Positions 1 to 4,410 of a stretch of DNA of 4,410 nt are shown here, one piece after another. This stretch comes from a virus. Its lineage: Duplodnaviria; Heunggongvirae; Uroviricota; Caudoviricetes. Each line of letters opens with the position of its first letter. Position 1 is the first letter of the stretch. The translations under genes were made by a program, and so were the position numbers. The notes under the pieces are model-generated. The model had not been told where the DNA came from. It ran no database searches and saw nothing but the letters and a program-made list of their open reading frames with translations. The stretch is taken from the IMG/VR virus record IMGVR_UViG_2724679236_000009, positions 1-4,410 of that record. One strand, written 5' to 3'.

Positions 1-423
1 ACTGGCTACCTGCATGAGGCTATTTTTTGTTTCGTCCGCTTCCCGGATCCGAAACAGTTTTTCTGCTTCTGCATCTTTCACCCAGGCTGTGCCGTTCCAC
101 TTCTGATATTCCCCTTCCGGGGATAACCAGGTGACATTTTCCGGTAACGGACCAAGTTCAGAAATAAATAACGCGCTCCCTGATTCCACGTTATAAACCG
201 TTTTACCCCGATGATCTTCAACGAGATGCCATGACTCCTCTTCACTGTTGAAAACAGCCACGAAACCAGCCGGAGTATCCGGTGGAGCAATATCCGTAGA
301 ATTAGCTGGCAGACCTGTATGCGGTGGAATATATGCATCACCTTCACCAATAAATTCATTAGTTCCGGCCAGCAGGTTATAGATTTTTATAGTCCGTGAT
401 TGTTCACTCATTCTGAATGCCAT
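1..423 (-). CDS. tfa: Tail fibre assembly protein Tfa (chaperone for side tail fibre), truncated by the window edge: 141 N-terminal codons present, remainder lies beyond position 1
   Basis: Minus-strand ATG at 423..421 opens a frame that runs without stop to position 1. My own translation begins [141 protein letters not shown], which is near-identical over its length to phage lambda Tfa as I recall it. The supplied ORF track misses this gene because it has no stop in the window. SD-like GTGAGG (complement of 432..437) sits 8 nt upstream of the ATG. Position immediately downstream of stf matches lambda gene order. Confidence 0.9.
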
Positions 424-3400
424 TATGCAAGCCTCACAATATAGTTAAATGCGATGTTTTTGACGGTGTTTTCCGCGTTACCCGCAGCGTTAACGGTGAT
501 GGTATGTCCATGCGCACCCAATGCCACTGTGTGTGCATGGGCACCAATGCCTACGGTATGGTTATGCTGACCAATATTGACGGTATGAGCGTGAGCCCCG
601 GCAGAGCTTGACACCTGGTTGGTTCCTGATACCTGTACGCGTTGTTTACCACCAACAGAGTCACCACCATAGCGCCCACCGACAGTGTGTGTATGCGCTC
701 CCGTATTGTTTGTCGTTTTTGTGCCGTGGTTAAACGTGCTGACCGTTTTTGTCCCGTAATCAAACGAACTGGTTGTTTTCGTCCCCAAATCCGTACTGGA
801 TGCACTGGCACTGTGGGTGTGAGATTTAATGCCGTCCTGTTCCTGTGACAGAATTTCACGACCACTGACGGGCTTGCCCTTAATCATCCAGCCACGCATA
901 TCAGGGATCACGCCTGACGGATAAGCGACTGCAAGTTTCGGGTATGCAGATTTGTCAAAAGTCTGCCCCTGCATCAGGGCATAACCAGACGGAACGGTAT
1001 CTGATGGCCACGGGATTGGTGCGCCGACTGGGTAGCTTTCTGGTGGAAGATTTTTCGAGGTATAAACTTCTGCCCAGCCTTCCTCAAAACCATAACCGTC
1101 TCTTGAAGAACGGTAGAACAGACCACCATTTCTGTAATGCGCCTTCATCTGCAAGGTCCGGCAACTTCCGACTCCGGTATAGAAGTTAACCAGAATATAG
1201 CTGTCGCCAGAGCGGGTGACATTGTAAGCGCCTGATTCGGCATTCCAGGGAACGCCACCATCCGCATCGGCATATGTATCCGTTGCCCTTCTGGCAAAAG
1301 CAGCCACATGCGCGGCGGTTAAAGTAATATCTTTTGAACCATCAAACTCAACCCCAGAAACCAGTCTTGGCGTTTGCAGCTTTGTTGCTGTCAATGCGTT
1401 ACCGTTCAGACTTGCGGACAGTTTGGTTCCAATAACCAGTTCGCCGGTTGCGTTATCAATAGCAAACGGTCTTAATGCATTCCAGCCACCATAAACATCA
1501 CCTTGATTGGTAAGCAGCAGATAAGTTTTAGCGCCGTCATTTCTCCATAATGCACCATATTCCCCACCTATCATTCGAATCTGATTACCACCACGCGCTA
1601 CAATTTCGTCTGTTGCGAAAAGTTTTTTGCACGACAAGTTATCGTTAACAATTAACGAATGAGATTCGTAAAAACCGCGCCCACTTTTAAAATCAAGGAT
1701 AACGTCAGCTGCGACACATTCTGTCGCCGGATTTATTGCCCCAAACTTATAGGTCGTATCATTAACAACGAGATCAGCACCCGGTGTGGATATTGACAGG
1801 CCATCTTCGATAAACGCAAAAACAGGGAAAGCAGCACCATCAACATAGAACACAGAGCGCAAATCATCGCCCTTATTACTCATCATTATTGAGTGAATGG
1901 CTCGTTCATTGTTTTGATATTGCCAGAACATTCCATAGGCATAACGCCCCCTGTCAGTCCAGCCGCCAGGCATAACGAATCCATTAAACTCACAGTTATT
2001 TAGTGGATCGTTCGCAGTTCGTGTTGCGGTAGTAATAATTACTCTTGATGCCAGCTCGCTTACTGAGCCAGCAGAGCGCATAACAACAACAGGGTAATAT
2101 TTCCCCGGTGTTGCACCTGCCGGAGCATTAACGCGCACATAACGCATACCATGCTTAGCAGCAAAGTCGGTTTTGCTGACCGCATTAATGTTGTTCAGGA
2201 AAGCGCCCTTATCTGGAATATCTTTACCGTTCTGATCTTTCTGCAGACGTTTCTCAGCATTGTCATTGGCTGCTTTTACTGCCTTTGGCGTTGCCGCCAG
2301 TGACTCGGAAGTGCTGTTGGTCGCGTTACTAAGTTTCACAACACCTTTAGTTGTAAGACTTGCGTCTTCCATCGCAACCGCGCCAGCAATCTCTTCAGCA
2401 CGATCAGCGGCAGCTTCTGCACGAGTCGCAGCGGATTCAGCGGCAGTTTTGCTCTGAGATGCAGCCGTCGCACTGCCTGCTGCTTCTGTTGCCTTCGTGG
2501 ATGCCGTTGTGGCGCTGCCCTTTGCTGCTGACGCTTGTCTGGTCGCCTCATCTTTTGAAGCAGACGCCGATGATGCCGATGACGCCGCCGAACTGGCGGA
2601 CGATGCGGCTGCCGCCTTAGAGGAAGCAGCATTGTCTTCTGAAGTCTTTGCATTTGTTTCAGAGGTTTTTGCTGCCGATGCTGAATTTTTAGCAGCTGTA
2701 GCCTGACTCGTCGCCTCAGTCGCTTTTGCGGTAGCTGTTGTCGCTGATGACAATGCGTTTTCCGCAGATTTTCCAGCGGCGGTGGCACTGGCTGAGGCCT
2801 GCCCGGCACTTGTTGACGCGGCACTGGCTGACGACGCAGCCGCTGTTTTTGAGCCTGCCGCAGCTGAGGCACTCTGTTCCGCTGCCGTTTCAGAGGACTT
2901 AGCGTTTGTCTCAGACGTCTTTGCCGCCTTCGCAGAATTTCCTGCTGCCGTTGCCGAAGAAGCTGCACTACTGGCGCTCGAGGCTGCGTTCGTTTCTGAT
3001 GATTTTGCCGCCTCTTTTGAAGCCGCTGCATCCCTGGCTGACGTGGCAGCTTCTGACGCCTTCGTGGTTGCAGTAGATGCAGAAGTGGCCGCAGATTTTT
3101 GTGACGCTACAGCATTCGTTTCTGACGTTTTCGCATTCGTCTCAGACGCCTTTGCCGCCTTCGCAGAATTTCCTGCCGCCGTTGCCGAAGAAGCGGCACT
3201 ACTGGCGCTCAAGGCTGCGTTCGTTTCTGATGATTTTGCCGCCTCTTTTGAGGCTGCGGCATCCCTGGCTGACGTGCTGGCGGCACGTGCTGAATTTCCC
3301 GCATCAGCGGCATGACTCGCCGCCTGATTGGCTGATGCACTGGCATCGCTGGCTGATTTCTTCGCGGCTGCCGTATTCTGTGCAACCGCGGAGGCGTTAC

Positions 3401-3743
3401 GTGACACCTCTTCCACCATCTGCTCAAAGCGACGCAGTGCCTCCGGCCGGACATCATCCTCCGTCATTGCACCGAGGAAATCATTCAGTGTGCCCGGCTT
3501 TGAGTCCTCATACACGGTGATAATCCCGGCATGTGACGGTGGAAATCCCTCCACCAACAGAATGACGCTGTACTGGCCGAACTCAACGTCCATTGTGTAA
3601 CGCCCGGCTTCATCCGGGTTTTCTGAAGCCACCGTGTTCACCACCACCGTGGTGCTGTTACGTCTGGCTTTCAGCTGGATTGTGCAGTTCTGTACCGGTT
3701 TTCCTGTACCGTCTTTCAGTACACCTGAAATCTTTACTGCCAT
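423..3743 (-). CDS. stf: Side tail fibre protein Stf, lambdoid type, intact full-length (~1106 aa from ATG at 3743; the ORF track starts at an in-frame GTG at 3749, two codons upstream)
   Basis: Single 3.3-kb minus-strand ORF with stop TAA at 425..423. N-terminus (M)[35 protein letters not shown]...[33 protein letters not shown] matches the lambda Stf (orf-401) N-terminal domain as recalled. Contains the conserved fibre motif [33 protein letters not shown] (about 2282..2350), a long Ala/Ser/Thr-rich repetitive shaft, and a C-terminal HxH-rich tip ending ...[31 protein letters not shown] at 3743 is preferred over GTG at 3749 because GGGG (complement of 3749..3752) is 5 nt upstream of the ATG and the GTG lies inside that SD-like element. 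Confidence 0.92.
432..437 (-). promoter_or_regulatory. Shine-Dalgarno-like element for tfa, embedded in the last codons of stf
   Basis: Minus-strand sequence ...AUUGUGAGGCUUGCAUAAUG: GUGAGG is 8 nt upstream of the tfa ATG, and the stf stop overlaps the tfa start (TAATG). Confidence 0.5.
2902..3045. repeat. Copy A of an in-frame ~144-bp direct repeat inside the stf shaft-coding region
   Basis: 2902..3045 and 3133..3276 align without gaps at about 94% identity (roughly 9 substitutions), offset 231 bp = 77 codons. They encode the duplicated peptide [19 protein letters not shown](A/L)[21 protein letters not shown](A/T)SETNAK. Confidence 0.85.
3133..3276. repeat. Copy B of the in-frame ~144-bp direct repeat inside the stf shaft-coding region
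   Basis: See copy A. Shorter degenerate units encoding K(T/S)SETNA recur around 2620..2700 and 3105..3150. Confidence 0.85.
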
Positions 3744-3746
3744 ACT

Positions 3747-3752
3747 CACCCC
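3747..3752 (-). promoter_or_regulatory. Shine-Dalgarno-like element for stf
   Basis: Minus-strand sequence UUUUUUGUGGGGUGAGUAUG: the GGGGUG run is 3-5 nt upstream of ATG 3743..3741. Confidence 0.45.
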
Positions 3753-3754
3753 AC

Positions 3755-3781
3755 AAAAAAGCCCGCCTGAACCGGCGGGCT
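3755..3781 (-). terminator. Putative Rho-independent terminator downstream of lom, directly abutting the stf ribosome-binding site
   Basis: On the minus strand the RNA would read AGCCCGCC-GGUUCA-GGCGGGCU (8-bp GC-rich stem, 3760..3767 pairing with 3774..3781, 6-nt loop) followed at once by UUUUUU (complement of 3755..3760). On the plus strand the A-run precedes the hairpin, so this is a terminator for minus-strand transcription only. Confidence 0.6.
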
Positions 3782-3807
3782 GTCATAACACTGTGTTACC
3801 TGGCTAA

Positions 3808-4407
3808 TCAGAATTTATAACCGACACCCACGATGAAACCATCAGTGCGCCAGTCACCACTGCCGGAGCCTTCATAAGCAATATCAATGGCCACGGATTC
3901 GGTCGGGTTAAACTGCACGCCAGCCCCCCACGCCAGAGACGTGTTACTGTGGCGACCGTCATCACTTCCGGTCAGCACATCGTGCGTTTTCCCCTTGTTG
4001 TCAGTTACGCGGAGATAATCCCCGGAGAAAGTCGACACACGGCTGTAAGCCACACCCGCCATCGCATACGTGCTGAACCATTCATTCACGCGCACAGATG
4101 GCCCCGCCATCACGCTGAACCAGCGGTTACGCACAGAATCTTCATGCCAGCGGGTATCGCTGTAACGGGTAAGCTGGCGATTCCTGTCTCCTGCATAGCT
4201 GAATGACGTCACCATTCCCAGCGTGTCCGTAAACTCATAACGGTATTTCACGTTAATCCCGTTAAGCTCATCGCTGCCGGAAACGTTCGTCGGGGCATGA
4301 AGATAGCCCGCGCTCAGCGTGGACTGATGTTCAGACGCCCATGCAGGCGCACCGGATACGGCCAGACAGATGGCTGCGGACAAAATGGCTGCACAAACTT
4401 TACGCAT
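3808..4407 (-). CDS. lom: Lom outer membrane protein (Ail/Lom/OmpX-family 8-stranded beta-barrel; lysogenic-conversion type gene), 199 aa, intact
   Basis: ORF with ATG at 4407..4405 and stop TGA at 3810..3808. N-terminal signal peptide [25 protein letters not shown]-terminus ...[24 protein letters not shown] matches the lambda Lom C-terminus as recalled and ends in the terminal Phe typical of outer-membrane beta-barrels. Alternating aromatic/hydrophobic stretches ([31 protein letters not shown]) fit beta-strands. Sits immediately upstream of stf as in lambda (J-lom-stf-tfa). Confidence 0.9.
4336..4407 (-). other. Predicted Sec signal peptide of Lom (24 aa, predicted cleavage after AWA)
   Basis: N-terminal MRK (positive n-region), hydrophobic core [16 protein letters not shown], then A-x-A motif (AWA) before SEHQ. 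Called by eye only. Confidence 0.6.
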
Positions 4408-4410
4408 AAT

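Follow-up and report, generated by a model that had tools for sequence, protein, structure and literature searches.

A near-identical in-frame repeat in the side tail fibre gene of an Escherichia albertii lambdoid prophage: a probable footprint of in-phase gene conversion

Introduction

Why does the side tail fibre gene of an Escherichia albertii prophage carry almost the same 144 base pairs (bp) twice within its rod, and does the pair alter the length of the fibre? The gene, stf, lies in a stretch of 4,410 nucleotides (nt), positions 1 to 4,410 of the IMG/VR virus record IMGVR_UViG_2724679236_000009, which is called the window throughout and which is the reverse complement of the whole draft contig BBVS01000060.1 of E. 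albertii assembly GCA_001514845.1. The window is part of a lambdoid prophage and contains three genes, lom, stf and the start of tfa, all encoded on the minus strand. An earlier note on this DNA had regarded the two segments as a likely substrate for changes in fibre length and had recommended scepticism about their copy number in any assembled genome. This interpretation turned out to be partly supported. The repeat exists as described, and it is probably the footprint of an ectopic gene conversion in phase with the coiled coil (or of a double template switch or double crossover), an event that would have replaced one segment of the lambdoid side-tail-fibre rod by another of equal length.

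Two copies of one segment in an uninterrupted heptad array

The proposal that the gene is stf holds. The prophage tail-fibre domain PF08400 occupies amino acids (aa) 3-136 of its product (E 1e-71 in Pfam), as expected for a lambdoid Stf, and the gene stands between lom and tfa. The gene and the parts of its rod that matter here are located as follows:

423..3743, minus strand: stf, side tail fibre, 1106 aa from the ATG at 3743 (open reading frame, Pfam and PHROG tail-fibre families)
2364..3413, minus strand: Ala/Ser-rich rod of 50 uninterrupted heptads, aa 113-462, register xxAxxSA (fixed-position composition and autocorrelation)
3133..3276, minus strand: copy A, proximal to the N-terminus, aa 158-206, the probable recipient site; core patch 3135-3266 (132 nt, 44 codons), across which relatives are colinear and 33-50% identical
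3046..3132, minus strand: 87-nt spacer between the copies, aa 207-234, conserved in relatives
2902..3045, minus strand: copy B, aa 235-283, the donor-type unit, found once at the B position in 191 of 204 homologues
2628..3236, minus strand: span of eight K-x-S-E-[T/D]-[N/A]-A heptads in one heptad phase, coinciding with deletion and module-switch junctions in relatives

The open reading frame listing places the start of stf at the GTG at 3749, and the amino acid coordinates of the repeats are counted from that GTG.

Self-comparison showed that 2902-3045 and 3133-3276 are identical at 135 of 144 nt (93.8%), with a start-to-start spacing of 231 nt, so that the two segments of about 94% identity reported earlier are bona fide. 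The match can be extended to 160 nt at 91% identity (2886-3045 against 3117-3276). Both copies are read in one codon phase of the minus-strand gene, offset by 77 aa. No other internal homology in the rod is as long, and the pair includes stretches of 40 and 27 nt without a mismatch; by comparison, 144-nt self-matches at other offsets of the same rod reach at most 86/144, and the maximum in the rods of three close relatives is 82-85/144. Of the nine differences between A and B, seven affect the third base of a codon, and sometimes A, sometimes B has kept the ancestral state. This distribution argues for a shared origin from which both copies later drifted, and not for convergence.

The repeat is embedded in a very regular structure. 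Three fixed positions of the heptad are occupied by Ala (47/50), Ser (38/50) and Ala (33/50), and the heptads follow each other without interruption. In the identity autocorrelation of the rod, significance (z 6.7-14.9) is confined to lags divisible by 7, and lag 77 gives the highest value. The spacing of 77 aa between the copies equals 11 whole heptads, and the register continues unbroken across the patch. The shorter degenerate units, previously described as K(T/S)SETNA, were recovered as the eight K-x-S-E-[T/D]-[N/A]-A heptads listed above, beginning at aa 172, 200, 207, 249, 277, 284, 361 and 368; a 17-nt repeat family with seven copies is also spaced by multiples of 21 nt.

An AlphaFold2 model of the monomer was helical over aa 103-473 with moderate confidence (mean predicted local distance difference test score, pLDDT, 69.5) and contained one fold-back, which is regarded as an artefact due to the use of a single chain. 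In Ur-lambda, the homologous part of gpStf (residues 102-393) has been modelled as a trimeric proximal coiled coil by a combination of cryo-electron microscopy, cryo-electron tomography and AlphaFold3 (PMC12617516). By analogy, the rod of the window is presumed to be a trimeric alpha-helical coiled coil. The rod is also overlapped in antisense by a plus-strand open reading frame of 177 aa (2782-3315), and several more long antisense frames are present; these probably only mirror the GCN periodicity of the coding strand and are presumably not genes.

Relatives indicate overwriting rather than duplication

The origin of the pair becomes apparent when the gene is compared with its relatives. Over the first 1,400-1,500 nt of stf, no insertion or deletion separates the window from phages 2H10 and PhiR34_1, E. 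coli D6, E. albertii NBRC 107761 and five IMG/VR prophages. Only where copy A lies, in four blocks of 30 nt, does their identity to it fall to 10-15 matches per block. The borders of the exchanged region are sharp. Against E. albertii NBRC 107761, a 27-nt identical block that ends in ...CACGTCAGCC is followed by 132 divergent nt (3266-3135) and then by the identical 23 nt GCGAAAACGTCAGAAACGAATGC. At the site of copy A the relatives encode GQAASSAQSASSSAGTAS..., whose likeness to the patch is limited to the heptad pattern. The distance between the anchors RRFE and KG[IV]V is 362 aa in the window as well as in 52 of 63 anchored Stf sequences. The rod has therefore not been lengthened with respect to its relatives, and a simple tandem duplication is ruled out by its unchanged length. 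For the same reason the pair cannot be taken as a length-changing duplication: the relatives are colinear, have a rod of the same length and lack only the upstream copy.

The downstream copy, in contrast, is a regular component of the family. The 48-aa unit occurs once, at the B position, in 191 of the 204 homologues, and among them it occurs twice only in the window. Copy A is most similar to the window's own B (135/144), the best B of any other allele reaching 133/144. Colinear flanks, a different recipient sequence in relatives and a donor sequence that resides at its own site in those relatives are what a conversion patch would leave. Because the rod has the same length in relatives while its upstream site differs, the most consistent reading is that this site was overwritten in phase. 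The protein search behind part of this comparison used 500 aa of the product and considered the best 120 matches, among which the window's own protein, although present in the collection, did not appear; the search was thus not exhaustive.

How the upstream copy may have arisen

If the pair is the product of gene conversion, 132 nt of the rod (3135-3266) would have been overwritten by the sequence that normally lies 231 nt, or 11 heptads, downstream, an equal length being replaced. The donor could have been the same gene or the stf of a co-resident prophage; in E. coli genomes the median number of places that match the stf region is 2 and the maximum 14. The switch would have taken place at short shared motifs, namely CACGTCAGCC, which encodes TSA, on the 5′ side and a K-x-SETNA heptad on the 3′ side, after which each copy would have drifted separately to accumulate the nine differences. 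Since the offset comprises whole heptads and the patch is of equal length, fibre length and coiled-coil register would be unchanged and the event was probably near-neutral. Segments of about 100 bp within phage genes are often exchanged by Rad52-like recombinases that tolerate divergence, and the minimal exact pairing has been placed at 23-27 bp for Red-beta and 31-34 bp for RecA (PMC3945230).

Several observations weigh against this reading. The homology between the A and B sites at the borders of the patch is short and imperfect (about 10-15 nt), below these minimal lengths for RecA and Red-beta, which makes the enzymology uncertain. The donor is not certain either: the 6% divergence between A and B resembles that between the B copies of different alleles (138-151/160), so that the donor could be the stf of another prophage, or the exchange may date far back. 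The homologues surveyed did not include an intermediate allele. Finally, the known carriers of the allele are a single near-clonal E. albertii lineage and one metagenome contig, a narrow sample for tracing its history.

The size of the divergence between A and B also bears on a different origin, in which an unsampled stf lineage, with the unit native to that position, supplied copy A by homologous recombination in register. Stf rods are mosaic, and the rod of the window contains two other divergent blocks that would fit with imports of this kind. Such an origin nevertheless seems unlikely: an allele with the unit at the A position was absent from the best 120 protein matches, from 83 IMG/VR loci, from 35 genome loci and from the complete E. 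coli genomes, and the B copy closest to copy A is the resident one. The two blocks lie at gene nt ~970-1120 and ~1290-1410 (window ~2620-2770 and ~2330-2450) and diverge from all relatives, with 14-21 matches per 30 nt; their sequence suggests additional mosaic exchanges inside the heptad array.

A duplication of 231 nt followed by a compensating 231-nt deletion of the original upstream segment, through two unequal crossovers, would lead to the same end product as a conversion patch, and unequal recombination between in-phase motifs does occur in the family. This route is improbable, as it requires two independent events of exactly equal size, neither a 439-aa nor a 285-aa intermediate was seen, and the flanks and the spacer are perfectly colinear with those of the relatives.

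Does the pair change the length of the fibre?

Although conversion would have left the length untouched, the resulting repeat might itself recombine. The arithmetic of the original proposal is correct: 231 nt correspond to 77 codons, and with 11 heptads gained or lost by recombination between the copies, neither the reading frame nor the coiled-coil register would be disturbed. A deletion or duplication of 77 codons would correspond to about 11.4 nm of rod at 0.148 nm per residue. In addition, the 40-nt and 27-nt perfect runs reach the minimum for pairing by Red-beta, and the 40-nt run also that for RecA (limits from PMC3945230). In principle, then, the pair could mediate a 77-codon deletion or duplication that preserves the register. 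What is missing is the product. Among the 204 homologues there was no rod of 285 or 439 aa and no 77-aa insertion or deletion, the comparison by which the proposal was to be checked, and the N-terminal flank joined directly to the unit was absent from 5,426 complete E. coli genomes.

The same result was obtained in wider collections. The junction of the two-copy allele reads CAGCACGTCAGCCAGGGATGC. The diagnostic junction 21-mer was absent from species-representative genomes, and a degenerate version of it was absent from IMG/VR. In metagenome contigs the 21-mer had four exact matches, three of which showed no BLAST similarity to the window and are due to chance, while the fourth, contig OLIF01000883.1, carries the same two-copy allele with both copies identical to those of the window. 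A 95-aa peptide across the junction had no protein match at E <= 1e-10, a cut-off too strict for the result to be informative with a query of such low complexity. Neither a one-copy nor a three-copy variant was thus detected: six E. albertii assemblies and the metagenome contig, a near-clonal sample, all contain two copies.

These data make it very doubtful that the pair is an active, contingency-like substrate in which recombination or slippage regularly adds or removes 77 codons. Besides the missing products, the one further carrier of the junction is likewise a two-copy allele, the six E. albertii assemblies agree within 0-2 nt, nine differences have accumulated between the copies with neither homogenisation nor loss, and the copies are not in tandem, being separated by the 87-nt spacer. 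The proposal retains in its favour that the register would survive, that the perfect runs are long enough to pair, that rods of the family differ by whole heptads and that another unit of stf does vary in copy number.

The last two points deserve attention because they show where length variation in this family takes place. Rods of 138, 250, 257 (lambda), 264 and 362 aa were found, all of them 5 mod 7, and the differences between them, 98, 105, 112 and 224 aa, amount to 14, 15, 16 and 32 heptads. The idea that fibre length changes in steps is therefore sustained for the family, although these steps run between other pairs of motifs and none of them measures 77 aa. The junctions of the length differences fall in degenerate motifs that are in phase, such as TSAR[E/D]AA and K-x-SETNA, and other alleles switch to unrelated distal modules immediately past AAKTSETNA.

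Immediately beyond the distal end of the rod, alleles carry 0, 1, 2, 3 or 5 copies of a 44-aa unit (KGIVQLSS...LAATPKAVK) with an exact 44-aa spacing. The unit is found at gene nt ~1130-1700 in relatives (loci L005, L022, L058, L065 and others), and the window has one, near aa 468-511. In some alleles the copies of this unit are 98-100% identical over 96 nt. It is in this 44-aa module, and not in the 77-aa pair, that copy number truly varies within stf; the module is perhaps the PF03406 domain that is precomputed for some homologues.

A further length difference was seen at a short repeat within the rod:

2563..2587, minus strand: 9-nt tandem repeat, 2.8 copies, encoding SSA units, with one unit fewer in OLIF01000883.1

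The resulting loss of 3 aa in OLIF01000883.1 breaks the heptad phase and is the sole length difference observed that is not a multiple of 7. It would cause a local discontinuity of the coiled coil, and it could also be an assembly error.

A more speculative reading concerns the heptad array as a whole. It might act as a recombination ruler, in which the TSA... and K-x-SETNA motifs let recombinases delete, duplicate or overwrite whole heptads and the reach of the fibre is tuned to the thickness of the O-antigen or capsule; this idea is considered rather unlikely. If it were true, fibre length could change in steps of about 1 nm per heptad, with the observed classes 14-32 heptads (~15-33 nm) apart, and the two-copy allele of E. 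albertii would be a freshly primed substrate for an 11-heptad step.

Reliability of the assembled sequence

Near-identical repeats are a common cause of collapsed assemblies, and this concern had been raised for the present pair. The window is an entire draft contig, and many public Stf homologues are labelled as partial at contig ends, which is what gives the suspicion of a repeat collapse or a mis-join in short-read data its weight. Against it, the same 3,321-nt gene is present with 0-2 nt differences in six E. albertii assemblies, one of which is the 4.78-Mb single-contig chromosome CP117678.1, and the exact Stf protein was found on 11 contigs. Agreement among six assemblies, including a single-contig chromosome, removes the worry over assembly collapse; with both copies also present in the independent metagenome contig, an assembly artefact was rejected as highly improbable.

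More generally, short-read assemblies often break within stf: the closest Stf homologues in NCBI are mostly labelled as partial and lie on short contigs (a few are mislabelled as short-chain fatty acid transporter). About 20 species-representative genomes of unrelated taxa, among them Leeuwenhoekiella, Pseudomonas, Shewanella, Oceanobacillus, Desulfosporosinus, Kitasatospora and Bradyrhizobium, hold low-coverage contigs with the N-terminal part of stf, some of these contigs being about 48.4 kb long. The stf part on them is truncated like orf-401 of laboratory lambda with its frameshift, the rod being likewise 257 aa long, and the contigs look like contamination of the assemblies with phage lambda DNA.

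Genes of the window and architecture of the product

The two genes that flank stf are:

3808..4407, minus strand: lom, Ail/Lom outer-membrane protein (PF06316, E 4e-119), the upstream neighbour of stf
1..423, minus strand: 5′ part of tfa, tail fibre assembly protein (PF02413), first 141 codons, the gene being cut by the contig end

Together with gpJ, which is encoded upstream in the E. albertii loci, 2H10 and PhiR34_1, they give the order J - lom - stf - tfa. By megablast, the gene order of the window is also found in lambdoid phages such as 2H10, ev099 and PhiR34_1 at about 90% identity. Between the lom stop and the stf start, a strong terminator-like hairpin is present on the minus strand at 3760-3781, with an 8-bp stem containing 7 G-C pairs followed by a T-run, and a terminator is annotated around the lom-stf junction in some related phage records. 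Directly downstream of tfa, the E. albertii prophage (five loci) carries an nleG-family type III secretion effector gene (PF06416), at a typical position for lambdoid cargo.

The protein, whose identical copy in E. albertii bears the name prophage tail fibre protein, begins with residues 1-94 matching PDB 9e7m, 'Tail fiber protein' (E 1.6e-50). Further Pfam domains are PF21446 (gp34-like trimerisation) and PF07484 (Collar domain). Residues 902-1106 match PDB 2xgf, the gp37 protein of T4 (E 9.4e-77), and identify a distal gp37-like receptor-binding tip. In this tip, HxH-rich repeats (GAHAHTV, GAHGHTI; window about 430-700) match the needle domain of PDB 2xgf. A 30-nt tandem pair at 714-773 encodes TKTT..F.YG units, and aa 1014-1025 give a weak match to PF03335 (Phage_fiber repeat).

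Relation to known systems and significance

The Stf proteins of lambda and Ur-lambda share with the window the collar domain (PDB 9e7m, PF08400), the lom-stf-tfa order, an Ala/Ser-rich heptad rod and a rod length of 5 mod 7. The rod of the window is 15 heptads longer than that of lambda (362 against 257 aa between anchors), which would amount to about 15 nm at the same rise per residue. The window differs from lambda in the converted 44-codon patch and in the gp34-like trimerisation domain (PF21446) in the middle of the protein, a domain that the architecture of the 774-aa lambda protein does not need. StfR of the E. coli K-12 Rac prophage and similar proteins belong to the same family, with the same N-domain and rod motifs (megablast ~82-87% to genes annotated as stfR); in StfR-type alleles the unit is single-copy, and copy A with its flanks occurs in none of the 5,426 complete E. 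coli genomes.

The coiled-coil surface fibres of streptococci, the M proteins, change length by recombination between repeat blocks that are in phase. As in Stf, whose rods differ by whole heptads, those repeats span whole heptads and the register is kept. The pair in the window departs from this model in having two copies only, which are non-tandem, 6% diverged and free of copy-number polymorphism. Tail fibres of phages can also be diversified by the template and variable repeats of diversity-generating retroelements (DGRs), as in Mtd of BPP-1, and two repeats of about 140 nt and ~94% identity in a tail-fibre gene superficially resemble such a pair. A DGR is nevertheless effectively refuted by the mismatch spectrum (mismatches are not confined to template adenines, with 5/9 in the best case, P = 0.11), by the lack of a reverse transcriptase among the genes called within 3 kb on each side of stf in the E. 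albertii loci, by the invariance of the supposed variable repeat in six assemblies and the metagenome contig, and by the location of both copies in the structural rod instead of the C-terminal receptor-binding domain.

The closest precedent is the mosaicism of tail-fibre genes through exchange at short motifs, attributed in PMC3945230 to Sandmeier (1994) and Haggard-Ljungquist et al. (1992). The window follows that pattern of ~100-bp exchanges within genes via short, diverged homologies, with the difference that here the exchange would have been 231 nt out of register, with the same gene or a paralogous stf as partner, so that an internal direct repeat was created instead of an allele swap.

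In conclusion, such a repeat pair is what recombination in mosaic tail-fibre genes ordinarily leaves behind, and it adds nothing new biologically beyond the mosaicism already known for them. It illustrates that a near-identical in-frame repeat in a tail-fibre gene need not mean a duplication or an assembly fault, since in this case it is probably the result of a length-neutral conversion that preserved the register. For the family, the existence of rods quantised in heptads, together with a small number of natural junctions that are in phase, provides a practical guide for the design of chimeric or length-altered Stf in phage-derived delivery particles (compare PMC11338833).

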